A stretch of DNA of 48,244 bases from a virus. Position numbers and translations under genes: made by a program. Below the pieces are notes generated by a model that saw only the letters and a list, made by a program, of their open reading frames with translations, was not told where the DNA came from and did no database searches. Where the stretch lies: UHGV virus genome UHGV-0308199, one strand, 5' to 3'. Shown in pieces: positions 1 through 16,683 of this stretch. How positions within the stretch are numbered: the stretch's first letter is position 1; every line of letters begins with the position of its first letter.

Positions 1-258
1 CAACAAACCTAATGCAGTCTTTAGTTTACAAATTGTTACATATATTATTCGTCAAATTTCATTATTATCAGAGATTAACAAGCATTGGCAAAGGTTGTCA
101 CTCAGTAATACTCACCATTATTAACTATTATTCACCATTATTTAGTATTCAAATTCTTTGAATGAGTTTGAAAGTGCCAGTCTTTACGTATTAATTCTTC
201 TGTGCAAGTATATATACACCCAATAGAGACTAATTAAGTCTTAGTATAAATATCTAAT

Positions 259-501
259 GTGAAGGACATAGCCATGAGCTTATTGCCTCGGGAAAACGCA
301 CCCCAAAAAAGATATAGACTTCTGAGAATATCAGAAGTGATTAATTTGACTGGCTTACCCAAGTCAACAATTTATCTAAAGATAAAGAATGATGAATTTC
401 CGAACCAAGTTTCTATCGGTTCTCGTTCTGTTGCATGGGTGGAGCATGAAGTTAATGAATGGATAGAGAAGAATATTCTCAATAGAAAATTAAACTCCTA
501 A
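259..501 (+). CDS. alpA: AlpA-family phage transcriptional regulator (HTH, excisionase-like)
   Basis: 80 aa; RLLRISEVINLTGLPKSTIYLKIKNDEFP...GSRSVAWVEHEVNEWI matches AlpA/Vis-type HTH pattern. Confidence 0.8.
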   Translation: MKDIAMSLLPRENAPQKRYRLLRISEVINLTGLPKSTIYLKIKNDEFPNQVSIGSRSVAWVEHEVNEWIEKNILNRKLNS

Positions 502-518: not shown

Positions 519-1379
519 ATGGTTGACAATGTTTTTAAGAAGAAATTGGCATCAATTAAGAACGAACATGTGTCGGTGTTAGATAGTTACAAAGTAAGAT
601 CATTTAAAGAGACTCATAGCGACACGGCCTGTATTGTGCGTATTATTGAAATATATTCACTGAATAAGCTGCGAGCTAAAGGTGAAAAGCTGTATTCACT
701 TACGGGGTTAACAGTACCTGATACGGAAACTGTGGCGAATGAGATCAACCTGCTCCTGAGCCGTTATGCCCAGTTGTGTCGTCAGGAAGAGGAAGAGTTA
801 TCTTTCCGGCAGCGTGAAGTGACAAATGCGGAAGTTGCATGGAAAAGCACATTCTCAAAAAACGGCGTCAGTAGCATTGCTGAAGCCAAAACGAATAAAA
901 TGGGGCATGCTGAACGAGCGGATGCTGAACGGTATTACCATCTGGCTGTTTCCCGGTTGAATGAACAACATAGTCGATTGAGCACGATCAAGCTTTTGCC
1001 GGGAGTACTGGCCGATGAAGGAAACTACATTGGGAAGGGAATCGATAAGCGTTTACTGAATATATTTCCTCAATCCGGCCAGATCCCTGCTGATTTTATT
1101 TCTGTATTTAATGACAGTGACGTTGTCCGTGATATTAAATTTATTACTGATGCACTCAAGTCTTTATCTGATTCCGTGAGTGAAATTATTAGTCGTTGTA
1201 GCGTTCCAACTGATCGTTATGTATTAAATAACGGTGGAATGGCAAGAGCTATGGCTTACAGGGAGTACTATCGAGCAGATAATTATGTATTACGTTCAGT
1301 CGTAAGTGACCGGGATTATGTTGAGCATGTAATGAAATACAATCTGGTTACTGAGTACAAAAATAAAATCTTTTCTTAA
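519..1379 (+). CDS. hypothetical protein upstream of capsid-like gene
   Basis: 286 aa ORF, co-oriented, 17 nt after alpA; no motif recognised. Confidence 0.5.
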   Translation: MVDNVFKKKLASIKNEHVSVLDSYKVRSFKETHSDTACIVRIIEIYSLNKLRAKGEKLYSLTGLTVPDTETVANEINLLLSRYAQLCRQEEEELSFRQREVTNAEVAWKSTFSKNGVSSIAEAKTNKMGHAERADAERYYHLAVSRLNEQHSRLSTIKLLPGVLADEGNYIGKGIDKRLLNIFPQSGQIPADFISVFNDSDVVRDIKFITDALKSLSDSVSEIISRCSVPTDRYVLNNGGMARAMAYREYYRADNYVLRSVVSDRDYVEHVMKYNLVTEYKNKIFS

Positions 1380-1401
1380 ATACTTAAAAAGGTGAAAAAC
1401 T

Positions 1402-2406
1402 ATGTATGCCTTCAAAACTGAAAGGCCGGACGCAGCACGTCGTTATCATAATAAATTCGTCACTGGCACTAACTATCAGGAAGAATCAAACAGACGCTTT
1501 GCATTAAGCGAACCTACTGAAAATATACTGCGTACCTCAATTCTGGAATCCGGGTGGCTTATTAAAAATATTACCCTACGTGATGTTAACGCCGTGTCAG
1601 GTAATGCCGTCAATATTGGTGCCAGTGAACTGTATACCGGACGTGTGGATGGTGGCCGTTTCCACAAAAAAATGGCAATCAATGGTACGGAGTTCTTTCT
1701 GACAGAGACGGATACCTGCGCCCGGATCAGCTATTCCGATATGTCTCATATTTACCATACCGGCGTGCCGGATGAGTTTGAGAAAACGGTTGAGAGCTTT
1801 TTTGCCCAGGCATATGCGCTGGACATGCTGCGGGTCGGTTTCAACGGTGTGTCGATTGCAAATACTACAAACCCGGAAATCAATAAAAAAGGCGAGGATG
1901 TCAATATTGGCTGGCATGCACTGGCGAAAGCCTACGGGAACGGAAAGCAAATCATCTCTGAGCCTGTCACTCTGGGAGAGACTGGCACCTGGAAAAATAT
2001 TGATGCTCTGGCCAACCATCTGATTACAGAGCTTATTGCTGAGCAGTTTCGTGAAGATCCTCGTCTGGTTGTACTGGTTGGGGCAGAGCTGGCAGCACAT
2101 CAACGCCTGAAGTTATTTAATGCCGCAGACCGCCCGTCTGATGTGAATGCGGCACAGATGGCTACAAGTTCTGTTGCTGGCCGCTTTGCGTTTATTCCCC
2201 CGTTTATGCCGGGTAAGCGTCTGGCAGTAACGACGCTGGATAATCTGCATATTTACACTCAGGCGATAACACGCTGGTTTCGTGCTGAGTTTGATGATGA
2301 AAGCAGTGAATACGTGCATTCCTACCTGCGCAATGAAGGTTATGCACTCGGTGAACCTGAACTGTACGCGGCTGTTGATGAGTGCACCCTGACGTTTGCG
2401 GATTGA
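1402..2406 (+). CDS. P2-family major capsid protein (gpN)-like
   Basis: 334 aa; segments MLRVGFNGVS, DVNIGWHAL, EDPRLVVLVGAELAA, LDNLHIY fall in the same order as conserved blocks I recall from P2 gpN; from memory, not searched. Confidence 0.5.
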   Translation: MYAFKTERPDAARRYHNKFVTGTNYQEESNRRFALSEPTENILRTSILESGWLIKNITLRDVNAVSGNAVNIGASELYTGRVDGGRFHKKMAINGTEFFLTETDTCARISYSDMSHIYHTGVPDEFEKTVESFFAQAYALDMLRVGFNGVSIANTTNPEINKKGEDVNIGWHALAKAYGNGKQIISEPVTLGETGTWKNIDALANHLITELIAEQFREDPRLVVLVGAELAAHQRLKLFNAADRPSDVNAAQMATSSVAGRFAFIPPFMPGKRLAVTTLDNLHIYTQAITRWFRAEFDDESSEYVHSYLRNEGYALGEPELYAAVDECTLTFAD

Positions 2407-2419: not shown

Positions 2420-2446
2420 AGACCCGCTCAGAGGCGGGTCTCGTTT
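2420..2446 (+). terminator. hairpin after capsid-like gene (AGACCCGC-tcagag-GCGGGTCT, weak T tract)
   Basis: 8-bp stem immediately after the stop codon. Confidence 0.4.
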
Positions 2447-2544
2447 ACAGCATCAGGAAAAATGAAGAACTATTTTTAAGCAGAGGCTTAAGCATGCCAG
2501 CGTTAATTAATCCAGGCAATGATCAGTTTTCGGTTATAAATTTC

Positions 2545-2880
2545 TTGCCTCACCAGGAATGCGCGGGATATAGTTTAAAGGTTGCCGCAAAATCGGCAGC
2601 CGGGCGTAGGAACCCGTGTTATCTGAAGGCGATACTACACGCGCTAGGCGTGTTTTTTTGTGTCGCAGCTTTGACTCACCTAAAATTTATGGTGTGGTGG
2701 CTGATTGTATTTTTTTATTTTTTACGCCACATCATCAGAATTATGGTAGTCCAGGCGGGGCAGCTTTCGGGCTGGCCGGTATCCTTCAGAGCCGGTATTC
2801 CTACCCCCGTCTGGGCTACCACCCATGAGCGTAGGAACTCCGGTGGTAGCGTTACCCGCTATCTGAAGGAGGTTGCCATT
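2545..2880 (+). promoter_or_regulatory. structured leader: sigma70-like promoter (TTGCCT-18-TATAGT, 2545-2574), direct repeats GCGTAGGAAC...TATCTGAAGG (2604-2629 and 2829-2872) and an intrinsic terminator (2637-2660)
   Basis: Read directly; second repeat copy supplies GAAGGAGG RBS for the ATG at 2881; ORF-track ORF 2494..3084 is low-complexity over this stretch. Confidence 0.4.
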
Positions 2881-3084
2881 ATGGCTACAGTCCCTGCTTT
2901 ATCTCACCCTGAATTTACCTTTGTCTTTCTGGCTGTCCGCCGTACAGACCGTGATGCCCGTCCACGCCCTGTGCGTGTAATCGCAGAATGCGAGCATGCT
3001 GCACGCCTTAAACTTGCCACTGAATTTATCCTGAGCTTTGCTGCCCGTATCCCTGTGAAAAGAGCCGGGGAGGTGGTTGCATGA
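2881..3084 (+). CDS. small hypothetical protein (67 aa) downstream of the leader
   Basis: ATG at 2881 with GAAGGAGG RBS 9 nt upstream; in frame with 3' part of track ORF 2494..3084. Confidence 0.4.
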   Translation: MATVPALSHPEFTFVFLAVRRTDRDARPRPVRVIAECEHAARLKLATEFILSFAARIPVKRAGEVVA

Positions 3085-3317
3085 AATCCATGAATTTTAA
3101 GCAAGGCTGCATATTGAGTGAACAGGGGGAGAGTCGTCTGTTACGGGCGGCACTGGCCAGTGAGTTTCTTGCAGAGGTCTTGTCCGTGCCCACAGTGAAT
3201 GGAGCGAGAACTGTTTCAGCGGAAGGCGCTGCGGCTTTAGTGGCCTGTATTGCCGAACAACTGGATGGCGTTGTTAAGGAAACCAGCACAATTAAGGGAG
3301 TGATGCGCGATGAATAA
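3081..3317 (+). CDS. hypothetical protein
   Basis: 78 aa; start overlaps upstream stop (ATGA). Confidence 0.45.
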   Translation: MKSMNFKQGCILSEQGESRLLRAALASEFLAEVLSVPTVNGARTVSAEGAAALVACIAEQLDGVVKETSTIKGVMRDE

Positions 3318-3720
3318 TAATCAAAATTTAAAGGCGCATGCTTTACGAACAGCAGTCTTACGCTACTACATTGCTGATGCATTCATTTCCTTAATGGTGC
3401 GTGTTCATAATGAACCTGTTTATATTGAAGATGGCGAACGAATAGAACTCTCCCACGAAAAAGTGGTGAGTAATATTATTTACCATATTGAAATGCCGTG
3501 GGTGAATGAGTTTGGGGCTGATGCTGGTTGCATACTGGCCGCAGAGAAACTGGAAAAAATGCTTAAACCAGGCTTTATGTCAGAAAATATTCGCCTGTCA
3601 GTTTTTGGTGTCACAGAGATGCGTGAGGTTTACCGGGATATTATTTTCGGAGCACCTGATGGCGAACTACCCGAAGGTTTTGAATTTGTGAAGCCGGAAG
3701 GTCAGGAGGTGCTGCTGTGA
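3310..3720 (+). CDS. hypothetical protein
   Basis: 136 aa; stop overlaps primase GTG start. Confidence 0.5.
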   Translation: MNNNQNLKAHALRTAVLRYYIADAFISLMVRVHNEPVYIEDGERIELSHEKVVSNIIYHIEMPWVNEFGADAGCILAAEKLEKMLKPGFMSENIRLSVFGVTEMREVYRDIIFGAPDGELPEGFEFVKPEGQEVLL

Positions 3721-6404
3721 AAACACCGTCTGTATCCACGATTTCCGGAGCTGCAATTGGGCGCTGGCCTTATATCCTGTCAGCATTAGGTATTAAAGTA
3801 CCGTCCGCAGGACATCATGGGGCTTGCCCTGCCTGTGGTGGAAAAGATCGTTTTCGACTGGACGATAAAGCGGGGCGAGGGACGTGGTTTTGTAATCAGT
3901 GCGGTCATGGCGATGGTCTTGATCTGGTTCGTCTGGTGACAGGAAGAAAGATAAAAGAAGTCGCCGGGATGGTATCTGAGGCGCTTGCATTACCAGAAAT
4001 ACAGGAGAAGCCCGCATTGCCAGCCAGGAAAAAGGCCGCAGGAAAAGAAGCGGGCGCGGAGCGATATACCAGACTCAGACAGCAGTCCTGCAATGGTGAG
4101 CCGGTCTATCTGACAAATAAGAGCTTACACGGGTATTCACTTCCCTTGCTGTCACAGCCTTTGAATCTGGCCGGAATAACATTTTCCACCGGTTCATTAC
4201 TGCTGCCTTTGACGGATATTTCCGGGAATATTACTGGTGGCCAGCTTATCAATCCTGACGGGGATAAAAGTCTGCTGCCCGGTAGCCAGCTGTCTGGCGC
4301 ATTCATTGCCCTGACCGATATACCCGCTGAAACACCTGAACAGGTGATTATCACTGAGGGTTTTGCCACGGCGCTTACCGTCAGTCTGCTGACTGAAGGA
4401 TGGATCGTGGCGGCTGTCGCTGCCACCAATTTACTGAAGGTGACGGAGCAGATCCGAAAACGCTGGCCGGAAACCCGGATCATTCTGGCCGGAGATAATG
4501 ATCTGGCTGACGGCAAAGAAAACACCGGGCGTATTCAGGCAGAGAAAGCCGCCAAAGCGGTGGATGGCTGGGTAACGCTCCCTCCGGTACGCCATAAGGC
4601 TGACTGGGATGATTATCGGCAGGAAGTGGGGAAAGAACGGGCGAGAGATGCCTTTCGTGAAGAAATGACGCTGCATGGCAAAGGGCAGACCCGTTTACCA
4701 GAAGGGTTCCGGCTGACAAAAGAATATTTGTGGTACGACAAGCTGGTTAATAAGTCTGATGGTGATACAGAGATACGTAATATCAAAATTTGCAGTCCGT
4801 TGCGGGTGACGGCAATCACCAGTGATGCTGATGGAAGTAATTACGGGCGTTTGCTGGAATGGGAAGATACCAACGGAAACAGCCGTAAATGGGCAATGCC
4901 GATGGAGATGCTGGGCGGTAGCGGGGAAGAACTGCGCCGCGTTCTGCTGGTTAACGGGCTTTCTTACATCAACATTAACGGCATGGCCAGAGCATTCCTG
5001 ATGGAATATATCTCGCTGTGTAAACCGGACAGAAAAGTAACCTGTGTGAATAAAACTGGCTGGCACGGCGGGGTTTACGTTCTCCAGGATGAAGTGATAG
5101 GGCGCGAAGCCCAGTCAGTCATCTTACAAACATCGAGTGTGCAGGGGCGTGATTTTCGTGTCAGCGGCACATCAGAGGGCTGGCGTGAAAATATAGGCCG
5201 TTATTGCATAAAGAATGCCCGTCTTGCCTTTGCGGTGAGTCTGGCATTTGCTGCCCCCCTTCTGAAACTGGTTGGTATCGGCGGTGGAGGTTATCACCTC
5301 AAAGGGGAATCCACAGACGGTAAAACCACGACGATGAAAGTGGCTGCATCAGTATGTGGTGGAACAGATTTCTGGCATACGTGGCGGGCGACGGGGAATG
5401 CCTTAGAAGGAACGGCGAGCCGCCGCAATGATGCCACGCTGATGCTGGATGAAATCCGGGAGGTTGACGGCAGGGAGGCGGGAAATATCGCTTATATGCT
5501 GGCTAACGGGCAGGGCAAAGCCAGAGCCAGAACAGATGGTTCGGTAAGGGAAACCAACCGCTGGAATCTGTTGTTTCTGTCTACCGGGGAACTGTCACTG
5601 GTAGAGCATGCGGCAAGCGCCGGGGAACGTACGTATGCCGGGGTTGAGGTCAGAATGATCCAGATCCCAAGCGATTCGGGCAAGTATGGCGTGTTTGAAG
5701 AACTTCATGGCTTCAGTAGCGGGAAAACCCTGGCTGAGCATCTTGAGCAGCACGTAGCGCATTATCATGGTGCACCATTCCGCGACTGGCTGTATTGCCT
5801 GACCGCTGATCTGCCGGAACTGACCAGTCAGGCGAAAGCCTTATTGAAAGAGTATACCCGAAGGCTGACGCCGGAAAATGCCGGGAATCAGGTTGGCCGG
5901 GCTGTTACCCGTTTTGCTCTGGTTGCGATGGCCGGGGAGCTGGCCACAAAAGCGGGCATCACAGGATGGCCGGAGGGAGAGGCCTTTCGTGCCGCTCAAA
6001 GCTGTCTGGCTGCATGGATGGCTGACCGGGGCCATACAGCTAATCAGGAAGATAAAGCGGCACTTGAACAGGTTCGGGACTTCATGACGCGTAATCAGTT
6101 CAGTCGGTTTGCTGACTGGAATGACGACAGGAACCGGCCTGTTTCAATGATGGGATTCAGAAAAGTCGATAAAGGAGACAACGTGACAGAGCCGGTTGTG
6201 ACGTTCTACGTTCTCCCGTCAGGCTGGAAGGAGATCTGTAAGGGATTTGACTCGCGTAAGGTGGCCAGGTTGTGTGTGGACGCGGGCTGGCTGAAACCCG
6301 GTGAAGATGGCCGGACGCAAAACAGCATTCGCCTGCCAGAAATAGGGCTTAAACGTGTGTACCAGTTCAATACACAGGTACTGGGAAGCGCTGAACCTGA
6401 GTGA
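3717..6404 (+). CDS. P4 alpha-type primase-helicase (zinc-binding, TOPRIM, P-loop NTPase)
   Basis: 895 aa; CPACGG...CNQCGH zinc motif, ITEG and AGDND TOPRIM motifs, Walker A GESTDGKTT; GTG start. Confidence 0.9.
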   Translation: MKTPSVSTISGAAIGRWPYILSALGIKVPSAGHHGACPACGGKDRFRLDDKAGRGTWFCNQCGHGDGLDLVRLVTGRKIKEVAGMVSEALALPEIQEKPALPARKKAAGKEAGAERYTRLRQQSCNGEPVYLTNKSLHGYSLPLLSQPLNLAGITFSTGSLLLPLTDISGNITGGQLINPDGDKSLLPGSQLSGAFIALTDIPAETPEQVIITEGFATALTVSLLTEGWIVAAVAATNLLKVTEQIRKRWPETRIILAGDNDLADGKENTGRIQAEKAAKAVDGWVTLPPVRHKADWDDYRQEVGKERARDAFREEMTLHGKGQTRLPEGFRLTKEYLWYDKLVNKSDGDTEIRNIKICSPLRVTAITSDADGSNYGRLLEWEDTNGNSRKWAMPMEMLGGSGEELRRVLLVNGLSYININGMARAFLMEYISLCKPDRKVTCVNKTGWHGGVYVLQDEVIGREAQSVILQTSSVQGRDFRVSGTSEGWRENIGRYCIKNARLAFAVSLAFAAPLLKLVGIGGGGYHLKGESTDGKTTTMKVAASVCGGTDFWHTWRATGNALEGTASRRNDATLMLDEIREVDGREAGNIAYMLANGQGKARARTDGSVRETNRWNLLFLSTGELSLVEHAASAGERTYAGVEVRMIQIPSDSGKYGVFEELHGFSSGKTLAEHLEQHVAHYHGAPFRDWLYCLTADLPELTSQAKALLKEYTRRLTPENAGNQVGRAVTRFALVAMAGELATKAGITGWPEGEAFRAAQSCLAAWMADRGHTANQEDKAALEQVRDFMTRNQFSRFADWNDDRNRPVSMMGFRKVDKGDNVTEPVVTFYVLPSGWKEICKGFDSRKVARLCVDAGWLKPGEDGRTQNSIRLPEIGLKRVYQFNTQVLGSAEPE

Positions 6405-6419: not shown

Positions 6420-6625
6420 TATTTTTATGAGGTAACACTGGTAACAGAGGTAACACCCGTTACTGATGCGGTTCTTCAGTGTTACCAGTCAAAAATACTG
6501 ACTGGTAACAGAGGTAACAAAAAATGGTGTGTTACCACGCGTTACCTCTTGATTTTGCTAACTGGTAACAGATTAAATCCTTTTAAATCAATAGCGTTAC
6601 ACGTGTTACCAGTGTTACACGTTCA
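6420..6625. repeat. iteron array, candidate replication origin
   Basis: At least 10 copies of GGTAACA / TGTTACC in both orientations within ~200 bp just after the primase gene. Confidence 0.7.
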
Positions 6626-6686
6626 GAACAAGAGGTAGGGATCCAAATCCCTTCTTCTGGCGGGCAACAGTATAGGGCACAGAACG

Positions 6687-6959
6687 ATGAAGATGATGAG
6701 AATGTACTGCCCCACATGTCAGGCAGTAGCACGGATAGGTAAAACAAACAGGAAACACCCACAACTGTACGATGTGTACTGCTATTGCTCTAATGTGGAG
6801 TGCGGTCACTCGTTTGTGATGAATGTTGCTTTCTCCCATTCCGTTAGTCCAAGCGCGCTGAACGGGCAGGGAAGGGTTAAAGAGCTGATTGATGCAATTC
6901 CACCCGAGGAACGGGAAAAGGCTTTAAAGTTGCTGCTGGCTGCGCAAAAGAATGGGTAA
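6687..6959 (+). CDS. ogr: Ogr/Delta-family zinc-finger late-gene activator
   Basis: 90 aa; CPTCQ...CYCSNVECGHSF C2-C2 zinc finger typical of P2 Ogr / P4 Delta. Confidence 0.8.
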   Translation: MKMMRMYCPTCQAVARIGKTNRKHPQLYDVYCYCSNVECGHSFVMNVAFSHSVSPSALNGQGRVKELIDAIPPEEREKALKLLLAAQKNG

Positions 6960-7638
6960 AGTATGCGTCGGGAATGGCCGATCTGTTCCCGGAACCTGAA
7001 CACAGGATTTCAGTTTATACGGTCATAAAATTATTATTTTTCAACTGGTTATCTTCTTCATGTTTCACAAACCTTCATAAAATCACACACCTAAAATTAA
7101 TTATCCATTTAATATCATAGAGTTGCGTATTCAGGCCATAGATTCGACGGACAGTAAAACTGAAAAAAAATGAATTTCTTTTCATTCTTTTCAGTTCCTG
7201 TATCGCAGTACATCTCGAGGACTGGCACGGACTGGCGGTATCGTTTGTAAAAAATCCAGGCTGAAAATTTTTAGTGATATGAAAACCGCAGGCGGGTGCG
7301 GTGTAGTGCCGTTTTGGTCTGTCGAGCGTATATTTTCCTTTTTCACGATTGCTGCATATCAAAACGAATGTGCAGATATCAGGCCGTGTCAAACCGTGAA
7401 TCGTGGAGCCTAAATGCCCAAACTACGTTTGTAGACCTAGCTAGGGGAAGGTTTCCACATATACTGCTACCTATCTTCCAGTCGCTGGTGAGGATCAAGG
7501 TAAGCTAACTGGTGAACAAGAAAAGTACTTTCGTATCTTGCGTACTCGTTTTTTTTGATTAGTATGTACAGGTAGTAACTGGATGGTGAGAATTCGTCAT
7601 AACTTATCAAATTGCATGATGTTTATAGAGTATGAGTA

Positions 7639-8520
7639 ATGAGTCATAATAAAAAGGAATATGCTAAATTTTTCCGTCGCCCCATTTTTTCATCCTTAGC
7701 AAAAGGTAAGGATATTTCGGATTTATTTGGGAGTTTTGATTCTTACTGCTATGAAACACTGTTTTCAAACAATGATAATAATGAACATGAGATTTCACTA
7801 AGGGATTTATTTACATCATTATATGATTTTTTGCGTCTGAATTATAGAAATGAATATGTTTATAAGACAGCACTTGTCAATAAAATAATATTCGGTAAGC
7901 ACAGCCCAAAAACAAGTTCGTCGTCCATAGAGTTACCAATTAAAAACTCTATAGTGGATGTTGCGGTGTTTAATGGTACGTCTACAGCTTACGAGATTAA
8001 GACAGAGTATGATTCACCAAAAAGGTTGATTACTCAAGCCCCTGATTATTTGGATGTTTTTGATAAAGTGTATATAGTTACACATCCAGAGTATGCAAGT
8101 AAATATTGTGCTTTAAATCTCCCCAGAGTGGGAGTTATGGTTTTGAATAAAAAAGATCAATTGAGTGTCATTAAGGAGGCAGATTCAAATATTGATTATA
8201 TTAAAAGTGACAGCTTGTTTTCAGTTCTTAGAAAGGAAGAGTTCTTAGCTATAATAGAAGATTACACTTCAACTAAAATAAATATGCCTAACGGATTGGT
8301 TTATGAATATTGTAAAGAGATATTCATGCAGATGCCATTAAACATAGCAAATAAATACTTTATCTCTGCTATGAAAAAAAGATGTAACGATAAAGTTTTT
8401 TTGGATTATATTTATTCTCTTCCAGCATGTTTACGTGTTTTAGGTTATGCAACACCATTATCAAGAAAGCAAAAAGAATTCATCATGAATTTGATGGATG
8501 TAAAAATTAAAATTTGTTGA
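7639..8520 (+). CDS. cargo protein A, predicted PD-(D/E)xK-fold nuclease-like (candidate defense component)
   Basis: 293 aa; ~30-33% GC by eye; IVDVAVFNGTSTAYEIKTE gives D-x12-E-x-K signature. Confidence 0.7.
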   Translation: MSHNKKEYAKFFRRPIFSSLAKGKDISDLFGSFDSYCYETLFSNNDNNEHEISLRDLFTSLYDFLRLNYRNEYVYKTALVNKIIFGKHSPKTSSSSIELPIKNSIVDVAVFNGTSTAYEIKTEYDSPKRLITQAPDYLDVFDKVYIVTHPEYASKYCALNLPRVGVMVLNKKDQLSVIKEADSNIDYIKSDSLFSVLRKEEFLAIIEDYTSTKINMPNGLVYEYCKEIFMQMPLNIANKYFISAMKKRCNDKVFLDYIYSLPACLRVLGYATPLSRKQKEFIMNLMDVKIKIC

Positions 8521-8541
8521 TATCCTCAGGAGTTGTAAGTT

Positions 8542-9492
8542 ATGTATAGCCCATATTTGTATGCGAGAAGTACAGAGTTATTATGCCTTAGGGACCTCGT
8601 TGCGAAGGGAGTTAGCCTAAATGGTCTGCTACCAATTTTAGAACCAATTAACGTCAATACGAGAAATTTATTAACATGTTTAAATGTTTGGAATTCTGAC
8701 ATAATTGTTATCCTTAATCCTTATCAGGAAGATTTTTCTTCACACAATAACGTCTTAACTTTAAATCAAAATTTATCAAGTGTATTAACAAATAAAAATA
8801 ATATCATCTCTGGATATCTTATTCAGCCCAATACAACGATTAATGATATTAATAATTGGTTGAATGCTAACTTAAATAGACGAGTTGCACTTCTATATGA
8901 TAATCCATCATTATCCAACTCTGATATTCAGTTGTTGGCGACAAATCAATTGATTAGTTATCATGTTGTTTTAAATAATAAAATGCTTCCTAATCAGTGC
9001 GCTCTTCTTCCTTTGTCGAAGTTAATTATTATTAGCGATAACTTTAGAAAGTTAGCAAAAAATGCTGATTATAATGGGCCGGAACTTTTCACGCACGCAC
9101 ATCAATTCGTGGGACAAAATTACTTAGGATTTGGCGATTATACAATTACTGGCCAGGTACTAGATCTTGGAGGTGGTCAACCTTCTGCTGTTGCCGCACA
9201 TTTGGTGTTCAAGAATTTACAAGCGAATACAGTTTGGATTCGTCATTTTGTATCAAGCAACACGCAACGAGGAAGTTCAAATGTTACTGCAAAATTTTTA
9301 GATGTTTCAGATCAAATTACAAATCTTGTTCCCCAACATCCAACCCAGTTTGGCAGCAACATTGGTCTTAACTATTATTATTACAATAGTCAACCAACTG
9401 TAAGGCATTTCCCTGGGTTGCCAAAAAACAAACAGTATCAAATTACTCACCATATTTGTTTCATGCTGGATTTAATAGCAGGTCGTATTTAA
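8542..9492 (+). CDS. cargo protein B, unknown function (candidate defense component)
   Basis: 316 aa, N/L/Q-rich, ~28% GC; AGGAG RBS; 21-nt gap from gene A; 3' end overlaps convergent int by 21 nt; no Walker A/B seen. Confidence 0.7.
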   Translation: MYSPYLYARSTELLCLRDLVAKGVSLNGLLPILEPINVNTRNLLTCLNVWNSDIIVILNPYQEDFSSHNNVLTLNQNLSSVLTNKNNIISGYLIQPNTTINDINNWLNANLNRRVALLYDNPSLSNSDIQLLATNQLISYHVVLNNKMLPNQCALLPLSKLIIISDNFRKLAKNADYNGPELFTHAHQFVGQNYLGFGDYTITGQVLDLGGGQPSAVAAHLVFKNLQANTVWIRHFVSSNTQRGSSNVTAKFLDVSDQITNLVPQHPTQFGSNIGLNYYYYNSQPTVRHFPGLPKNKQYQITHHICFMLDLIAGRI

Positions 9493-10647
9493 TAAGCTAG
9501 CGTACCATTCCATCATTACTTGTCGATCTTTAATATATTGCGCATGATTGTAAGTACCTCGAATAGAGTTCTTATCAACATGCGCAAGCTGCATTTCAAT
9601 CCAGGCACTTTCAAACCCATGCTCATGCAAGATGGTGCTCATGGTATGCCTGAAACCGTGACCCGTTAACCGACCGTGATAACCCAGTAGTTTTATCACT
9701 TTGTTGATGCTGGCTTCGCTCATTGGTTTACTGACGTCATTCCGGCCAGGGAAAACGAGGCTGTAATTCCCTGTTATTTCTTGCAGCTTTTTCAGGATAT
9801 TGATCGCCTGAGTTGATAACGGAACCAGATGGGGGCGGCGTTTCTTCATCCGTTCTTTGGGGATCTCCCATAAGGCATTATCTAAATCAAACTCAGCCCA
9901 TTCCGCTGCACGTAGTTCAATTGTTCGCACGCCTGTTAGCATCAACAGCTGCGTGGCGTATTTGGTAACTAAACTGCCCTGATAGTTATCCAGAGCATTA
10001 ACGAACTCGGGCAACTCGCTTTCAGTCAGGAACGGGAAGTGTTGGGTTTTAGGTTTGTTGAGTGCGATAGCTAAATCGGGTGCAAAATTATACTTTGCTC
10101 TACCAGTGGCAACAGCATAACGAAGCACTTCACCACAGCGGCGGCGGATCTTACTGGTTTGCTCTAGCGCACCTCTTTTCTCTATTTTTTGCAGGACGGT
10201 TAGCAGTTCTAATGGTTCAATCTGCTCAATTGGGCGCTGGCCGATAAAAGGAAAAATATCCTTTTCCATACAATTGAGAACCTCTTTTGCATAACCCTCT
10301 GACCAGGTGGCTTTTTTCGATGAGTGCCATTCTCTGGCCACAGACTCAAAGCTGTTCTCATGCGCGAACTGCAAAGCAATCTTATCTGCTTTTCTGGCTT
10401 CACTTGGGTTTATCCCGTTGGCTAACATCGAACGCGCTTCATCACGTTTGGTACGTGCCTGTGCCAACGACACATCGCCATATACGCCAAAGGAAATCAT
10501 CTTAGGCTTACCTGCAAAGCGATAGCGAAAACGCCAGCCTTTACTGCCCGCTGTGTCGATCAGGAGTGATAGCCCCATACCATCGTTAAGCGTATAGGGT
10601 TTGTCCTTCGGTTTTGCTCTTTTTATTTGGATGTCAGATAGCAGCAT
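9472..10647 (-). CDS. int: tyrosine integrase, P4/CP4-57 family
   Basis: N-terminus LSDIQIKRAKPKDKPYTLNDGMGLSLLI...WRFRYRF (arm-binding type); C-terminus HGFRHT...LAH...GTYNHAQY catalytic motifs; start taken at internal Met (10647). Confidence 0.9.
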   Translation of the reverse strand: MLLSDIQIKRAKPKDKPYTLNDGMGLSLLIDTAGSKGWRFRYRFAGKPKMISFGVYGDVSLAQARTKRDEARSMLANGINPSEARKADKIALQFAHENSFESVAREWHSSKKATWSEGYAKEVLNCMEKDIFPFIGQRPIEQIEPLELLTVLQKIEKRGALEQTSKIRRRCGEVLRYAVATGRAKYNFAPDLAIALNKPKTQHFPFLTESELPEFVNALDNYQGSLVTKYATQLLMLTGVRTIELRAAEWAEFDLDNALWEIPKERMKKRRPHLVPLSTQAINILKKLQEITGNYSLVFPGRNDVSKPMSEASINKVIKLLGYHGRLTGHGFRHTMSTILHEHGFESAWIEMQLAHVDKNSIRGTYNHAQYIKDRQVMMEWYASLLNTTCY

Positions 10648-10895
10648 GTGTATAGAAAAAAGATCGAACTCAGTTATACACAATGTTATACGCAAAGATG
10701 TATAGATTCCATTAGAAATAATGGTACTTTGCTGGACGAGTATAAGGAGATGATATCAGTTAAAACAGTGAGTTATGGAATTAATTGAACTTAGTGAGAA
10801 GTGTTCATGGTGTCCCCTGCAGACATCTACTTGAAGCGGCAGGGGATTGATTGGAATGGTGTTTTTTAGATGTGAGAAATATTTTACCCGCTATT

Positions 10896-11096
10896 TTACC
10901 CATTGGCGCGGCTTAAGAGCTTATTTTTAAATTCACAATGGTCACGATATAACCATCTTGCTCGTCCGTGGATAACTTTGGCTTTAGGAAGGTCGCCGGA
11001 CTTAATCCGGTCATAGATGAAGGTTTTACCAAAGCCAGTATCGGCCATGATGAATTTCAAATCAACCAGTGAATCAGGCTGTAGTTCGTGTTGCAT
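10896..11096 (-). CDS. AlpA-family excisionase/regulator (Xis/Vis-like), upstream of int
   Basis: 66 aa; FIMADTGFGKTFIYDRIKSGDLPKAKVIHGRARWLY HTH; GGAGA RBS. Confidence 0.75.
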   Translation of the reverse strand: MQHELQPDSLVDLKFIMADTGFGKTFIYDRIKSGDLPKAKVIHGRARWLYRDHCEFKNKLLSRANG

Positions 11097-11141
11097 GAGT
11101 GCTATCTCCGAATAGGGAATCGAACCTGCAAATCAGGCAAT

Positions 11142-11160
11142 AAAAAACCGCCATCAGGCG
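11142..11160 (-). terminator. intrinsic terminator on minus strand (CGCC-tgat-GGCG + T6)
   Basis: Hairpin followed by TTTTTT on the minus strand, upstream of the AlpA-like gene. Confidence 0.5.
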
Positions 11161-11392
11161 TCTTGGTGTTCTTTCAGTTCTTCAATTCGAATATTGGTTA
11201 CGTCTGCATGCGCTATCTGCGCCCATATCATCCAGTGGTTATAGCAGTCGTTGATGTCCTCTGCTTCGATAACCCTGTCGAATGGCTCTCCATTCCATTC
11301 ACCAGTGACTCGGAAGTGCATTTATCATCTCCATAAAACAAAACCCGCCGTAGCGAGTTCAGATAAAAGAAATCCCCGCGAGTGCGAGGATG

Positions 11393-11677
11393 TTATTCAT
11401 TGCCGATATTCACCTTTATCGCGAACACCTTTACCGGTTTATCACCGAAGTGTGGATGTATGATTGTCTTGATTTCATACCCGTCATACGGGACGTCAAT
11501 TCTACGGCTGGAATCGTCGCGCTTCGGATATCCCTTTGTGATAATCAGACGGTCATATTCCCGGAACATAATTCGCTTATTCCAGTAGTCATTGCACAGG
11601 CGATACTCTTCCGTTTTCTCCCCGCGAATCATGGCATCGAAGTATTCACCTTTGACGGCAAGTTGCAGGTTAGCCAC
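11393..11677 (-). CDS. hypothetical early-left protein
   Basis: 94 aa ORF in leftward operon. Confidence 0.45.
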   Translation of the reverse strand: MANLQLAVKGEYFDAMIRGEKTEEYRLCNDYWNKRIMFREYDRLIITKGYPKRDDSSRRIDVPYDGYEIKTIIHPHFGDKPVKVFAIKVNIGNE

Positions 11678-11946
11678 GACCTTCCTCCTTTGGCTTGTGA
11701 ATTTGTATCGTCATGCCGCTTTGAGTGGTGACTACAATGACAGAACCAGGCTGTTAAGATTGAATGCTTCGTAAAACGAATCCAATGCCAGTGCTTTTTT
11801 ATTCTTTCTGTTCCACCAACGCCATCCCTTGCTACAGGCTACACTGACAATCCACTGCCCACTCCTGTAAGCCATATAAAACCAGATGAGCAAAACCTGA
11901 AGGAATGCTATCCAGTCAATAATCGTATATTTCGCGAAGGAGTCCA

Positions 11947-12489
11947 TCACTTCACCTCCTGCTGCGGTGCTGCTGGCATTTCACGCCAGTGCGTAACTGA
12001 GTGCGGATCCGGGTATTCGGTGCCATCATCCCAGCGATTGCCATTCCACATTGCAGACCACATCTCACCGTCTTCATACATGACCATTACCGGAATTAAC
12101 TTATCCGGCATTCGCTCACTACAGCTTATCCAACCATCCGGAGTTACCGGAGTTGGTCCATCGAATTCGGGCATGTCAGGACCTTTTCTGATAGCTTTAG
12201 CCAGCTCCAGCGGGTCATCGTAAAGCCAGTCGCCAGTTTGTGGGTGATTTGCTTCTGCAAGCTGCGCAGCCCATTCAAGACCATCTTTTTGACCTTGGAG
12301 ATAATCAAGCGGCAACTCTTCATGATTACTTGCAGGTTCGGCACTATCAGCTTCGCGCCGCTTCTGTAGCTCTGCTGCCATTGCTCTCACGACTTCAACT
12401 GGTGCCCTTGCAGCAAACTCTATGTTGGTGATCAGCTCATTAAGATATTGCTCGCCTGGATACTGTTTCTTATCGGTTATAGTGGTCAT
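11947..12489 (-). CDS. hypothetical phage protein (DUF551-like C-terminus)
   Basis: 180 aa; C-terminal W/D-rich segment resembles DUF551 of lambdoid phages (tentative). Confidence 0.5.
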   Translation of the reverse strand: MTTITDKKQYPGEQYLNELITNIEFAARAPVEVVRAMAAELQKRREADSAEPASNHEELPLDYLQGQKDGLEWAAQLAEANHPQTGDWLYDDPLELAKAIRKGPDMPEFDGPTPVTPDGWISCSERMPDKLIPVMVMYEDGEMWSAMWNGNRWDDGTEYPDPHSVTHWREMPAAPQQEVK

Positions 12490-12499
12490 GTGTTACTCC

Positions 12500-12805
12500 T
12501 TAACCCGCAGTGCTTTCAACTGATGAGGGGAACAAAATCTTTTCATCAAACCCTGCATTCATATCATGAACAGCAACACACCAATCCATCGACGAACGAT
12601 TATCAAGAGCCTCCATGATTTCATCCATGCGGCGCAGGTCATACAGGTAAATGCTTTTATCGCCAATGGTGTAAAAACCAATTTTTTTCGGTGATGGACA
12701 GCGATCAAGAACGTCCTGTAATTCGCTCAACCATGCTTGTTCTTTTTTTGTCAAAGTTGCCATATCACTCTCCTTTGATGCGAATGCCAGCGGCACGGGA
12801 ATCAT
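12500..12805 (-). CDS. hypothetical protein
   Basis: 101 aa ORF. Confidence 0.45.
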   Translation of the reverse strand: MIPVPLAFASKESDMATLTKKEQAWLSELQDVLDRCPSPKKIGFYTIGDKSIYLYDLRRMDEIMEALDNRSSMDWCVAVHDMNAGFDEKILFPSSVESTAG

Positions 12806-13472
12806 TCCATCGCTTTACTTCTTCACGAATTACGTCAATGCATTCTTTCGAATCCATTAGGTAATCTTCATCAAAAAGCCTTTCCTGTTCGTTTTCTATC
12901 GCAACAATGATTGCTTCAACTAACTTTTGTGCCTGAGAACCACTTTCTAACTCTGCAATGCGCTTCTCTGCGGCTTCCAGCTTCTCGCGCATATCGTCAA
13001 CGTACTCGACCAGAGATCCGCCAGCAGGAATTTCGCACTCCTCGACCAGTTGGAAGTAGATATCAGCTGCGGCCCGTGTGTTGCTATGCCTAGCGTCGCC
13101 CATCTCACCTTCACGAAGAGTATCGCGTTCGGCGGTAAGATTGGCTATTTTGCTGTCTTTGCCTTCCAGCTCAACGCGAAGCCACCCTACCGTTAGCGCA
13201 ATTTCCTCGTTCTCCTGGTCACGGCGTTTGATGTATTGCTGGTTTCTTTCCAGTTCATCCAGCAGCGCCAGCACGGTTTCTGGTCCGGTCAGAAATTTGA
13301 AGGCGTTGAGCGCATCAATATCCACACCGTAATCTTTAAGCTCCTGTTCACTTAACAAATCATCATCAACTGGCAACATTAACAGGCGTTCCATTGCTGG
13401 AATTGCACGTTCCGCCACCTCACGCAATGCCTGGTAATTAATTTCACTCACTGCTTGCCTCCTTTGCGCCAC
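12765..13472 (-). CDS. coiled-coil early protein (Ea22-like?)
   Basis: 235 aa, acidic, coiled-coil-like; overlaps downstream ORF. Confidence 0.45.
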
Positions 13473-13611
13473 ATCGCATTCAGATATTTGTTTTGATTCA
13501 CTGAAGGAAAAGAATTTCTCTTAAGCAATTCCTCTCTCGATGGCATTGGCTTTACGCGTTGGCGAATAATCATTTCTGCCGGAAGAATGCCGGGATTGTA
13601 TGCAAGTCCTC

Positions 13612-13893
13612 TCATGATTTACTCTCCACGAACTGGTCAATAGCCATGCTAAGTGACACACCTAAAGTATCGATATGCTGCTGAATATCCTGTAGCGTCT
13701 GAGCCTGAGATAACAGGATTTCACGGTTGCATAATTCTTTAACCAGATGCTCAAACTTGCTGTAATAACCGATACGGCTTAGTGTTTCTTTCCCTGCATT
13801 ATCACCTTCTTTGATAATTCCTCTTTCACTAAGAATCAGGTCGTGTTTTGTTCCGGTAATAACATATTTGCCTAGGTCTATGTTTAGCTTCAT
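13612..13893 (-). CDS. hypothetical protein
   Basis: 93 aa ORF. Confidence 0.45.
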
Positions 13894-13909
13894 TGTTAAT
13901 TACTCCATG

Positions 13910-14224
13910 TTAATTTATTCGTATGCCTGCTCTTTCTTCATCGAGTTTTTTTAGCTTGTATCTCATAGCTCTTACTGAATAAATTGAGCGGCAGGTTGCA
14001 ATTGCTATTTCTTCTGCGGAGAACTTACCGAAAAGTGATACTTCGGCTCTTGTCCATCGTCTTCCACGAAGTCGGCTAACAATGTCAGCGCCAATCCTTG
14101 TTGCTTTCGCCATTACTGCTTTTTCAGTCCTTTCCAGTTTTTCTGCGATAACTTCAACTGGCATTGTCGCCGCTACCTCGCGCAAGAAATCGACTTCCCA
14201 TTTCTCCCATGGAGTCTTTTTCAT
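13910..14224 (-). CDS. hypothetical protein
   Basis: 104 aa ORF. Confidence 0.45.
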   Translation of the reverse strand: MKKTPWEKWEVDFLREVAATMPVEVIAEKLERTEKAVMAKATRIGADIVSRLRGRRWTRAEVSLFGKFSAEEIAIATCRSIYSVRAMRYKLKKLDEERAGIRIN

Positions 14225-14235
14225 AGGCGATACCG

Positions 14236-14724
14236 TTATTTGATAAGAAGTGAAGGTTTCCCAACTTTGAGTTGAGCGCCGGGGATATTTATTCCTGCTT
14301 TTAGTTGGTGTTTGATTGCCAGTTTGTCGGCTTTAATTGTCGTTTCAAACTCAACGTATTCAGGAGGAAGGGCGCTTGAGTCGATTATTTCTACAATTTC
14401 TGACGGTTTGCGGATTGTTACCTGGTGAATACCTGCTCGAATATTTTTCTTGCCAACCATTTCAAGCGATGACGCTATATATGATTTGATGCTGTCAATC
14501 TTATTTTGGATTACTGCGGCTCGCTCATTAAGTGACTTTGCCTCTTCCTTGAGGCGTTCAGCATAACCAGATTCATTTTTAATGACGGAAAGAAGTTGCT
14601 CTATTTTATCGGTAAATTCTCCTTCCATGCCTTCTATTGTGTCAGCAATCATCTCTGGTTCTAAATCTGAATCCATCAATTTTGCGTATTCATTGGCTAT
14701 TTCATACAGTTTGCTCACTGGCAA
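14236..14724 (-). CDS. recombination-module accessory protein (Gp157-like?)
   Basis: 162 aa, immediately downstream of recT in the same operon. Confidence 0.45.
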   Translation of the reverse strand: MPVSKLYEIANEYAKLMDSDLEPEMIADTIEGMEGEFTDKIEQLLSVIKNESGYAERLKEEAKSLNERAAVIQNKIDSIKSYIASSLEMVGKKNIRAGIHQVTIRKPSEIVEIIDSSALPPEYVEFETTIKADKLAIKHQLKAGINIPGAQLKVGKPSLLIK

Positions 14725-15604
14725 CCTCCAGTTTCGCTTTGCATTCTATGTAAATGGCTTGTATGTTCTGCTGCAATTTCATTCCAGATGTCAGGCGATA
14801 TGCTTCTGCAAAATATCTCTTCAAATCATCCATGTTTTCAGCCTGAGCCATTTCATCACAAAGAAGTTGTGCTTTTTCCATTATTTCCTGCTGGCGTTTC
14901 CGTTCATCTTCGCGGATATCTTCCTCTGATTTGTGCGGCATAACCGGTTCCTGATGCATACCCTCATCTTCGTTAAGCAGGTGAATGGCATTATCCAGTC
15001 GCTGGGCTTTAGGCCAGTATTTGCTGGCGCGTTTAACTATTGTTTTACGCGCCATCTCTTCCCAGAATGTCTTCCACGGTCCATTCTTTGCCTTGCTCGT
15101 TGCTTCCACAGCTTTAATTTCTGCCAGACTCATTTCTTCAGTCAGGTAGTCACCATCTGCTGTTTTAACCGTGCAATAACCACCAACAATAGAGCCTCGC
15201 TCACCAAATGCGTTGTATTTGTGGGTTGGCGCTGAATCAAGGCCATTTGATTCATAGGTGTCGTTTGAGTACACCAGTTTGCATTGCCCCCACTTAATTG
15301 ATCCTGTCGATTGCGCAAGATGAAGTAATCCCATGTAACTGATATCAAGGCACACCATGCCGTCGCGAGGAACCAGATAAGCCAGTTTGCTGGCCGGGTT
15401 TAAGGTGATGCCGATCGCCGCAACATTGATGATGGCGTTCTGTGCGCTGGTTGGATTTGCCAGTGCTGTTTTAGCCAGGTAATCGTTTTTCTGGAAATAC
15501 TGAATTGCAAACTGGCTTTCCTTAGCCCATGTCACCGTCTGTTCAGTCAATGCTCCGCAGAATAACTGCTCTTGCTGTTTAACGAATTCAACGATATTGC
15601 TCAT
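14702..15604 (-). CDS. recT: RecT-family single-strand annealing recombinase
   Basis: 300 aa; RecT-like core (TIVKRASKYWP...), acidic C-terminus. Confidence 0.75.
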   Translation of the reverse strand: MSNIVEFVKQQEQLFCGALTEQTVTWAKESQFAIQYFQKNDYLAKTALANPTSAQNAIINVAAIGITLNPASKLAYLVPRDGMVCLDISYMGLLHLAQSTGSIKWGQCKLVYSNDTYESNGLDSAPTHKYNAFGERGSIVGGYCTVKTADGDYLTEEMSLAEIKAVEATSKAKNGPWKTFWEEMARKTIVKRASKYWPKAQRLDNAIHLLNEDEGMHQEPVMPHKSEEDIREDERKRQQEIMEKAQLLCDEMAQAENMDDLKRYFAEAYRLTSGMKLQQNIQAIYIECKAKLEVASEQTV

Positions 15605-15912
15605 GCAGCTTCTCCATAAATATGTCTGCGTTTGAATATTGCGAAGGCATATTCAGCCTTAACTCTTTCGGTTATTGCATCCCAGAACCATTCAGCGGCT
15701 TTTTCCTGATAGTTACAGTCATCATCTTCCAGCCAGTCGATAGCGTCCTTAGTGTGTTCATCTGGTTTATATGAGCGAAGCATTTCGCTTATTGGGTCGC
15801 AACGTTTGCAGAGGCGATCAACTTCACTGTTGATTCGCTCGTAATCTTCATCAGTAAAACTTGCGATTATTTGCGATATTTCACGCTTATCATTCAGAGT
15901 CAGAATCATCAT
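15601..15912 (-). CDS. hypothetical protein
   Basis: 103 aa ORF, start overlaps recT. Confidence 0.45.
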   Translation of the reverse strand: MMILTLNDKREISQIIASFTDEDYERINSEVDRLCKRCDPISEMLRSYKPDEHTKDAIDWLEDDDCNYQEKAAEWFWDAITERVKAEYAFAIFKRRHIYGEAA

Positions 15913-16683
15913 CTTTCTCCTGTTCTTTGTGCTGATTGAGCATTTTGTTCATCTGACGAATGAATTCTTCGTCTGACCAGTTATCTGTAAAACTCATGGA
16001 CGGCCTTGTTGTTTCAAAATATCCCAAAGCTTTTCGAGCAAACTTTTCATTCTTGGTTGTTTAAAGTCTGCTCCGGTTAAAATATTTTTTCGTGAATGCT
16101 GTACCGATAAAATCGGGTTGAAAGGGCGAACCGATGCCGCCCCTGCAATAGCGAACTGTTGCATAGGATGCTCCTTCTGTTTGATTGCATAACGAAAACG
16201 CCTCGAGTGAAGCGTTATTGGTATGCGGTAAAGCCGCCAACAGGCGGCTATTTGCTATTGATTCTTTTCAAGAACATCAATGATGTCGTCCGGGTTGTCT
16301 CCGTTGTCTTCACAAAATGCTTCGAATTCAGCCCATTTCGCGCTGATAAAATCAATTACTCTCATTAATTCTTATTCCATATTTTTCTCCAGACCAAAAG
16401 AATGCCGCCCATATAGAGCGGCAAGACTATCAAGGAATGATTTCCAATAATCAGAACAAGTCGGCTCCTGTTTAGTTACGAGCGACATTGCTCACATAGC
16501 AGACTCGCAAATCTGCTATAGGTGCTTATTCGCATCGCATGACAACATCAAATTTTTCGAGATTACTTTGTCGCAACAATCCCTCTTCTACGCGGTCAGC
16601 TTTTCTATAATTATCAAATTCGAAATGTTTAATTACTTCTTTCGTTTCTCGCTCTATAACTTCAACGATGTATTTCTTATTCA

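Follow-up and report, generated by a model that had tools for sequence, protein, structure and literature searches.

A P4-related satellite island of Escherichia coli carries an intact P2-family major capsid protein gene and points to ESSI-2-like phages as likely helpers

Results

An intact P2-family capsid gene in a P4-related island

The stretch of DNA analysed here, UHGV virus genome UHGV-0308199 (48,244 nucleotides; hereafter the window), begins within a P4-related island in which the regulator gene alpA (vis) is directly followed by two open reading frames (ORFs), one of 286 codons, referred to as ORF286, and one encoding a 334-amino-acid paralog of the major capsid protein gpN of phage P2 (Table 1), both being present as an initial annotation of the sequence had claimed. 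Profile searches and structure prediction confirmed the second product as an intact P2-family major capsid protein of the HK97 fold. The element is very probably a satellite that exploits ESSI-2-like phages and whose capsid gene is functional, and on balance we favour a structural, size-setting role of the capsid paralog, acting together with ORF286, in a small capsid.

The capsid gene product matched the Pfam profile Phage_cap_P2 (PF05125) over positions 16-326 of 327 with E=9.5e-67 and a score of 225.8 bits (cut-off 27), and the PHROG family phrog_70, 'major head protein', with E=1.8e-86. TIGR01551 gave 204.6 bits, narrowly under the equivalog cut-off of 219.65, as is expected for a diverged paralog. 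All three sequence blocks which had been named as shared with gpN were found and aligned with gpN, at residues 146-150 (GFNGV), 218-227 (EDPRLVVLVG) and 279-285 (LDNLHIY), and the RefSeq label of the gene is already 'P2 family phage major capsid protein'. An AlphaFold2 model of the protein (pLDDT 83, pTM 0.82) had as its top Foldseek match gpN in the P4 procapsid 7JW1 (E=2.9e-23, TM 0.70), followed by the phiRSA1 capsid 7OZ4, encapsulins, the SaPIbov5 and SaPI1 capsids and other HK97-fold shells; a sequence search of PDB retrieved the same two entries, 7OZ4 and 7JW1. Neither a lack of similarity to capsid families nor a fold other than HK97, the two outcomes named beforehand as contrary to a capsid protein, was encountered.

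Both ORFs are preceded by a Shine-Dalgarno-like sequence, and the gaps amount to 17 nt between alpA and ORF286 and 22 nt between ORF286 and the capsid gene. A GC-rich hairpin, read from the sequence just past the capsid stop codon and followed by a weak T tract, may be the terminator of this alpA-ORF286-capsid operon; it is absent from the list returned by the terminator scan. The surroundings of the capsid gene are not those of a P2-type head operon, the upstream gene not being gpO-like and no terminase or portal gene being present in the element. The neighbours that had been called satellite-like in the initial annotation, namely an alpha-type primase, an Ogr/Delta activator and a P4-type integrase, were all borne out by Pfam and by comparison with P4, and the occurrence of a capsid paralog in such an otherwise P4-resembling element is real, the gene being absent from P4 itself.

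The capsid and the cos region relate the satellite to ESSI-2-like phages

The proposed kinship with gpN holds at the level of the family, as seen from PF05125 and the fold, whereas gpN is not the closest relative. The capsid paralog is 48-49% identical over its full length to the capsids of ESSI-2-like Peduoviridae (48% to that of ESSI2_ev015), a set comprising Cronobacter phage ESSI-2 and Escherichia phages ESSI2_ev015, ev040, ev129 and ev239, but its identity to the capsids of P2 and 186 is ∼25% locally and 22% over the full alignment. The satellite Delta protein, in turn, shares 52% identity with the Ogr-like protein encoded by ESSI2_ev015.

The core of the cos region, GCGGGTGCGGTGTAG, is an exact copy of the 15-nt terminal repeat found at both ends of the ESSI-2 record, and the presence of the same 15 nt at the start and at the close of that record is what a cohesive end leaves when it has been filled in. 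Around this core, ∼180 bp are 72-75% identical to the termini of ESSI-2-like genomes; the ESSI2_ev015 contig ends at the equivalent base, and its other end resumes at the next homologous base past a sequencing adapter. The core is exact in 18 of the 19 satellite loci that reach this position and differs by one mismatch in the remaining locus. A satellite was seen alongside an ESSI2-like prophage in at least six representative genomes, and the size ratio of satellite to phage (11.0 kb versus 28.8-30.9 kb, i.e. ∼0.36-0.38) is near that of P4 to P2. Because the capsid is closest to those of ESSI-2-like phages and both their cos and their Ogr-like activator are shared, the helper is, judging from these sequence comparisons, likely to be an ESSI-2-like member of the Peduoviridae (Seongnamvirus/Quadragintavirus) and not P2.

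Other candidates were considered and set aside. The P2/P4 cohesive-end sequence had no match in the window within three mismatches, and P2 was rejected as helper on this ground and on that of the low identity to gpN. The prophage adjacent to the island was likewise rejected, as it is P22-like in its portal, coat protein and tailspike. P2-type Ogr boxes (TGT-N12-ACA) lie upstream of two operons (201..218 and 6613..6630) and were discounted, the window containing 10 such dyads versus 13.7 expected; the box is kept only in the closest relatives and is missing from the ESSI2 late-promoter regions. Two 'phage' records which share capsid or cos regions, S.Kent 1-2-1 and ECO95 1-6-1, were left unused, being low-coverage, unverified and unannotated contigs. 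Positions 1..47 of the RefSeq record of ESSI2_ev015 (L002, NC_049395.1) consist of 14 nt of unexplained origin followed by the Nextera adapter TCGTCGGCAGCGTCAGATGTGTATAAGAGACAG, after which the phage sequence resumes, so that the published record appears to be contaminated at this end.

Distribution and evolution of the satellite capsid gene

A scan with the capsid alignment across one genome per bacterial species yielded 80 loci, which were classified by tblastn using satellite and helper proteins as queries and divided cleanly into satellites and whole prophages. About 50 complete loci, with capsids 44-52% identical to the query, were with a single exception whole ESSI2-like prophages, in which the scaffold gene lies upstream, terL and the portal gene are divergent, and the terS, adaptor and sheath genes are found downstream. 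In the 22 satellite loci, with capsids 50-99% identical to the query, an ORF286 homologue is located directly upstream and the primase and Delta genes 2-5 kb downstream, and none of the terS, terL, portal, adaptor and sheath genes was detected by tblastn with the helper proteins. The satellite hosts belong to ∼15 enterobacterial genera (Citrobacter, Enterobacter, Franconibacter, Siccibacter, Kosakonia, Phytobacter, Intestinirhabdus, Erwinia, Buttiauxella, Brenneria, Yersinia, Pectobacterium, Rahnella, Xenorhabdus and Proteus).

The satellite capsids formed one clade in 100 of 100 neighbour-joining bootstraps, set apart by a long stem branch in a tree rooted on P2 gpN and placed within or beside the enterobacterial ESSI2-like phage capsids, a topology that we read as reflecting a single old capture. 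Pairwise dN/dS values of the capsid gene ranged from 0.05 to 0.18, indicating purifying selection. The phage-conserved residue is retained in 84 of the 121 capsid columns that are conserved among the satellites, while the positions conserved in phages and variable in satellites concentrate in the N-terminal arm and at the C-terminus, where clade-specific indels also occur; this divergence is compatible with a switched scaffold partner. Among 5426 complete E. coli genomes, the satellite module was found in 442 (∼8%), many of them ST131, and the copies were mostly at least 99% identical.

Several loci of the scan showed peculiarities of their own. In Siccibacter colletis (L010, ∼10001..11002) the capsid ORF stops after 135 aa, and the same genome has an ESSI2-like prophage (L042). 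In about half of the related satellites (L007, L008, L010, L012, L018, L021 and L023, ∼6700..9100) the integrase gene lies upstream of the head module and points the same way, and vis is replaced by another AlpA-like gene; the integration module therefore appears to have been swapped and relocated within the lineage. Three satellite or ESSI2-like loci of the enterobacterial type came from records titled Vagococcus sp. WN89Y (L023), Bacillota metagenome-assembled genome (MAG; L048) and Bacillales MAG (L063), L048 being up to 99% identical to ESSI2_ev015 proteins, and these titles are likely due to contamination or mislabelling.

ORF286 and a stand-alone protease domain in related satellites

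ORF286, labelled 'hypothetical protein' in RefSeq, had no match in Pfam, NCBIfam or PADLOC. In structural comparison no known fold was matched and none resembling Sid or Psu, and the hhalign probabilities of the ORF286 family versus Sid and Psu were below 1%. When 1.84 billion representative proteins were searched exhaustively with a profile of the family, only 58 relatives were recovered, nearly all of them 275-300 aa long. Across the satellite clade the homologues are 21-95% identical, with pairwise dN/dS values of 0.11-0.61, and are always found directly upstream of the capsid gene, whereas the ESSI-2-like phages have no ORF286 homologue. In the light of this arrangement ORF286 may serve as a scaffold or size-determining factor.

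The initial annotation had proposed that portal, protease or scaffold homologues be sought in ORF286 and in the two small ORFs upstream of the primase gene; none was found in this element. A gpO protease domain does occur in the sister subgroup B, made up of the more distant satellites of Yersinia, Pectobacterium, Brenneria, Rahnella, Xenorhabdus and Proteus, in which the capsid gene is directly followed by an ORF of 173-177 aa whose similarity to Phage_GPO is confined to the N-terminal protease half (profile positions 3-145 of 268), the scaffolding half being missing. Two loci (L013 and L015) have instead an unrelated 108-aa ORF after the capsid gene, along with a longer ORF286 homologue of 340 aa. 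Taken together, the capsid protein, the protease domain and ORF286 of subgroup B would represent the three kinds of protein that a shell needs, which favours a structural role, and the E. coli subgroup, having no protease, would depend on that of the helper.

Layout of the island and its relationship to P4

The window is a piece of the chromosome of E. coli with 100% identity to numerous ST131 genomes, JJ1886 among them, and in a complete genome the element sits between dsdC and a prophage. The island measures 10,994 bp and is bounded by two 16-bp direct repeats, ATGGTGTCCCCTGCAG, the left copy of which is located 187 bp before the window start; many E. coli genomes cease matching exactly at position 10822. 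The repeat is probably derived from argW of the dsdC-argW locus.

Table 1. Features of the satellite island, of the neighbouring prophage and of related loci. Positions refer to the window, except for those of the stand-alone protease domains, which refer to the loci named.
Feature	Position	Strand	Description
Vis/AlpA-type regulator and excisionase	259..501 (RefSeq start 274)	+	PF05930, E=6e-20; first gene of the alpA-ORF286-capsid operon
ORF286	519..1379	+	286 aa, all-helical, no assigned family; conserved partner of the capsid paralog
Capsid paralog	1402..2406	+	334 aa, P2-family HK97-fold major capsid protein, satellite-borne
GC-rich hairpin	2420..2441	+	AGACCCGC-TCAGAG-GCGGGTCT; may be the operon terminator
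P4-type RNA immunity region	2568..2826	+	c4-a1b1 targets 2568..2620, isrK 2581..2658, C4/CI antisense RNA 2739..2826
Two small ORFs (78 and 136 aa)	3081..3720	+	phrog_38507 and phrog_5991 (both function-unassigned); upstream of primase; kept in subgroup A satellites
Alpha-type primase/helicase	3717..6404	+	Pfam Zn ribbon, Toprim and DUF927
Iteron-like GGTAACA(G) repeats	6430..6625	+	dense, both orientations, after the primase gene; putative replication origin
Ogr/Delta late-gene activator	6687..6959	+	single domain; PF04606, E=5e-14
cos region	7157..7336	+	core GCGGGTGCGGTGTAG at 7292..7306
Cargo/defence hotspot, sce7726/sce7725 pair	7639..9492	+	NCBIfam NF033832 and NF033831; weak PADLOC match
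P4-type tyrosine integrase	9472..10695	-	Pfam arm-binding, central and catalytic domains
Right att repeat	10807..10822	+	ATGGTGTCCCCTGCAG; complement of a tRNA 3' end; second copy on the left
P22-like prophage, torI/xis	10896..11096	-	
P22-like prophage, tRNA-Asn and tRNA-Thr	28376..28531		phage tRNAs
P22-like prophage, portal	33766..35964		
P22-like prophage, coat	36967..38220		
P22-like prophage, tailspike	from 45878		
Stand-alone gpO serine-protease domain	L019 10993..11514		
Stand-alone gpO serine-protease domain	L020 10978..11499		
Stand-alone gpO serine-protease domain	L026 10996..11526		
Stand-alone gpO serine-protease domain	L027 11014..11535		

Vis is 46% identical to P4 Vis/orf88 (E=2e-20), the integrase 40% identical to P4 Int (E=9e-100) and the N-terminal 317 aa of the primase 38% identical to P4 alpha; similarity of the satellite Delta to P4 delta is weak (E=0.003). 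When 21 satellite loci were searched with P4 proteins, each of them had an alpha-type primase. The immunity region (2566..2961) shows 71% DNA identity to the P4 cI region, and its Rfam scores are 81.1 bits for C4 (gathering 45) and 68.9 bits for isrK (gathering 50). An ORF annotated as 'host cell division inhibitor Icd-like protein' (2494..3084) overlaps the Rfam matches to isrK and the C4 antisense RNA, and shares, in its 3' part, 58% identity with the former 'P4 cI ORF'; much of it is probably an RNA locus and not coding sequence. The two small ORFs that follow hold the place of P4 epsilon/orf151/orf106 and have no detectable similarity to P4 proteins.

The putative origin formed by the iteron-like array is paralleled in P4, which has its ori and crr repeats in corresponding places; one of the repeats overlaps the TGT-N12-ACA dyad at 6613..6630. 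Between Delta and the sce7726/sce7725 pair lie ∼680 bp of non-coding DNA. P4 cII (1746..2540 of L090, in RefSeq a 'sce7726 family protein') is 39% identical over 61 aa to the gene in the window, and the pair may be related to a portion of the P4 gop/beta/cII locus. Neither sid, psu nor epsilon was detected in the element by blastp and tblastn, nor in 21 related loci at E≤1e-3. The P4-like family has been defined by seven markers, int, psu, delta, sid, alpA, epsilon and alpha (PMC10085698; PMC8628076), four of which (int, alpA, delta and alpha) are present here. The element is thus related to P4 yet falls short of the published definition of P4-like elements (PMC10085698).

Apart from these features, a ninefold hexanucleotide repeat, (CCCAGC)x9, is found in the left arm of the satellite, slightly to the left of the window start (L001, ∼7945..8000), where it separates the att repeat from the promoter region of alpA. 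The remainder of the window (10896..48244) is occupied by the P22-like prophage, of the HK620/Sf6 type, which is integrated in tandem at the same tRNA-derived att site; IMG/VR records merge the satellite and this prophage into single 'viral' regions of ∼50 kb.

Discussion

The capsid replacement or remodelling that was suggested in the initial annotation is the best-supported reading of the capsid paralog, which is conserved, monophyletic and under purifying selection. According to this model, the module formed by ORF286 and the capsid paralog in the vis/alpA operon would replace sid and psu as the device of capsid-size piracy. In the presence of an active helper the satellite would excise, replicate from its own primase and iterons and express the module, and its capsid protein, templated or chaperoned by ORF286, would become a structural part of a small shell made wholly of satellite protein or mixed with that of the helper. 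Such a shell would be of about T=4, suiting a genome of 11 kb as compared with the 29-31 kb of the helper. Portal, maturation protease, terminase, head-completion proteins and tail would be contributed by the helper, whose terminase would cut and package the satellite DNA at the common cos. The analysis established the gene identities, the fold, the conservation, monophyly and purifying selection of the capsid gene, the cos in common with ESSI-2-like phages and the lack of genes for Sid, Psu, a portal or a terminase; that the proteins enter capsids, that these are small and that ORF286 scaffolds them is what we infer.

A more far-reaching possibility, which we advance tentatively and as less probable than a size-setting role as such, is that these elements are an unrecognised P4-related lineage that would assemble its own small shell from a captured capsid protein and a new scaffold, ORF286, joined in some members by a stand-alone gpO protease, and would depend on ESSI-2-like helpers for no more than the portal, terminase, head-completion proteins and tail. 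If true, the lineage would be an evolutionary intermediate between the remodelling of capsids, as in P4 and SaPI1, and capsid-forming phage-inducible chromosomal islands (cf-PICI), and ORF286 would represent a new size-determining scaffold fold.

A number of observations weigh against a structural role. No similarity of ORF286 to any scaffold, Sid, Psu or gpO was detectable, the case for its role being made by its position, its co-inheritance with the capsid gene and its helical character. An in-frame stop interrupts one capsid paralog (L010) among the 22 examined. An ESSI2-like head module was present in only 29 of the 5426 complete E. coli genomes, so that resident helpers are rare, and the near-identity of the E. 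coli copies reflects clonal spread of ST131, which makes conservation within the species uninformative as to function. The Ogr box upstream of the operon is not conserved, so that late regulation is at most putative, and no cos-ended contig of ∼11 kb was found in IMG/VR, where only prophage-prediction regions fusing the satellite with its neighbour occurred. Finally, deletion of the capsid-like gene of the PICI EcCICFT073 left interference with the helper unrelieved (PMC6092414), and PICI capsid genes have been reported to be dispensable for helper-assisted transfer (PMC10111431); a conserved capsid gene need therefore not build the satellite's capsid.

These last findings (PMC6092414; PMC10111431) also lend themselves to the main rival explanation, in our view an unlikely one, in which the capsid paralog and ORF286 would be an interference or defence factor, acting as a poison or decoy that co-assembles with the helper capsid or titrates its scaffold and thereby aborts helper heads, and would be neither required for satellite particles nor contained in them. 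P4-like elements are known to carry anti-phage functions (PMC13586616), and with the satellite being ∼15 times commoner than resident helpers in complete E. coli genomes, a benefit to the host could maintain it. The divergent N-terminal arm and C-terminus could give an assembly-incompetent subunit, but the phage residues retained at 84 of 121 columns argue for a protein that still assembles. Moreover, a simple poison would need neither a dedicated partner nor the protease domain of subgroup B, the module replaces sid and psu in the vis operon and lies outside the cargo hotspot where the defence genes sit, and a cos genome of 11 kb would still require a small head or multimer packaging.

A low probability is also given to the exact mode of SaPIbov5 Ccm, by which the satellite protein would occupy only special positions, e.g. 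the pentamers, in a shell made by the helper, with ORF286 serving an unrelated role such as regulation or derepression in the place of epsilon. In favour of this mode, the sole precedent that has been solved is a T=4 shell with pentamers of Ccm (PMC8569155), and the 48% identity to the helper protein makes mixed capsomer contacts plausible; as an epsilon homologue is missing, some gene must derepress or sense the helper. However, co-inheritance and co-transcription of ORF286 with the capsid gene throughout the clade, at 21-95% identity, are a better fit to a physical partner than to a regulator, and pentamer-only and whole-shell use of the satellite protein look alike at the sequence level. 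The further suggestion in the initial annotation that the element is a chimera, i.e. a functionless, decaying remnant of a P2-like head operon fused to a P4-like island, was rejected as highly improbable: the succession of a 286-aa gene and a capsid gene mimics gpO-gpN and the TIGR01551 score is just below the trusted cut-off, but ORF286 is not gpO-like, no head-gene fragments flank the pair, and the pair is kept in ∼15 genera, monophyletic, under purifying selection (dN/dS 0.05-0.18) and intact in 21 of 22 capsid genes, at identities of 50% to 99% that do not correspond to one recently spread sequence.

A size-setting function of the module would mean that an element of the P4 lineage appears to solve capsid sizing differently, with a diverged copy of the helper capsid and a protein of a new family. 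If confirmed, this would constitute a third mechanism for Gram-negative satellites, provide with the ESSI-2-like phages and these satellites a helper-satellite pair workable in E. coli, and serve as a natural experiment in which the setting of the T number by HK97-fold proteins and scaffolds could be studied. The occurrence of the element in ∼8% of complete E. coli genomes and its defence-type cargo imply that its mobility is also relevant to the flow of genes in a major pathogenic clone. The general idea is not new, as satellite-encoded capsid homologues are already known, but a P4-related lineage without sid and psu that bears a P2-family capsid paralog was not described in the literature searched, the coverage of which was incomplete, and the same holds for the ORF286 family, the stand-alone gpO protease variant and the assignment of ESSI-2-like phages as helpers on the basis of a common cos. 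Such loci may already be entered as 'PICI', with no further remark, in automated catalogues, and with four of the seven markers (PMC10085698) the element may be overlooked or filed as a PICI.

The pair of P4 and P2 is the textbook example of capsid-size piracy, which is brought about by the external scaffold Sid. With the P4-like family, whose helpers are P2 and 186, the present element shares a size of ∼11 kb, a tRNA-derived site, a P4-type Int, Vis/AlpA, the CI/C4 RNA, an alpha primase followed by iterons and an Ogr/Delta protein, as well as a helper-type cos between the late activator and a cargo/defence hotspot beside int and, in P4 cII, a sce7726-family gene. It differs from P4 in lacking sid, psu and epsilon, in a single-domain Delta closest to the helper Ogr, in the DUF927 C-terminus of the primase, in the capsid paralog and ORF286 between vis and the immunity region, and in a cos and capsid that point to ESSI-2-like phages.

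A capsid gene borne by a satellite is less unusual than the initial annotation had stated, considering SaPIbov5 Ccm, PmCI172 and most Gram-negative PICIs (PMC8569155; PMC6092414; PMC10111431). Ccm is a homologue of the capsid protein that enters the shell and alters its size (PMC8569155; PMC6893505). Like the paralog described here it is a satellite-encoded HK97-fold homologue of the helper capsid (helper phi12) in a cos-type satellite, but it is 23% identical to the helper protein, compared with 48% between our paralog and the inferred helper type, and it belongs to a Gram-positive host and a siphovirus helper, with no ORF286-like partner known; shell entry was demonstrated for Ccm and is proposed in the present case. 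Capsid homologues are also carried by PmCI172 and EcCICFT073 (PMC6092414) and by 21 of 29 reference Gram-negative PICIs (PMC10111431). These islands of Enterobacteria and Pasteurella (EcCICFT073 with c1499/c1500, PmCI172) resemble the present element in having int, alpA, a primase and often a major capsid homologue, and PmCI172 makes small capsids. Their capsids, however, belong to lambda E or Mu-like families, fitting lambdoid or Mu-like helpers, they have no CI RNA immunity, Ogr/Delta or Peduoviridae cos, and the capsid gene of EcCICFT073 was dispensable in the reported tests.

The cf-PICIs likewise encode a major capsid protein of their own, beyond remodelling that of the helper, but also a portal, protease, head-tail adaptors, TerS and HNH, and borrow only tails; none of these additional head genes was found in the present element by Pfam or PHROG, subgroup B has the protease domain only, and the helper cos is kept. 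The ESSI-2-like phages, finally, are complete myoviruses of 29-31 kb with a gpO scaffold/protease, terminase, portal and tail genes, and share with the satellite the closest capsid, an Ogr protein at 52% identity, the identical 15-nt cohesive-end core and a homologous cos region.

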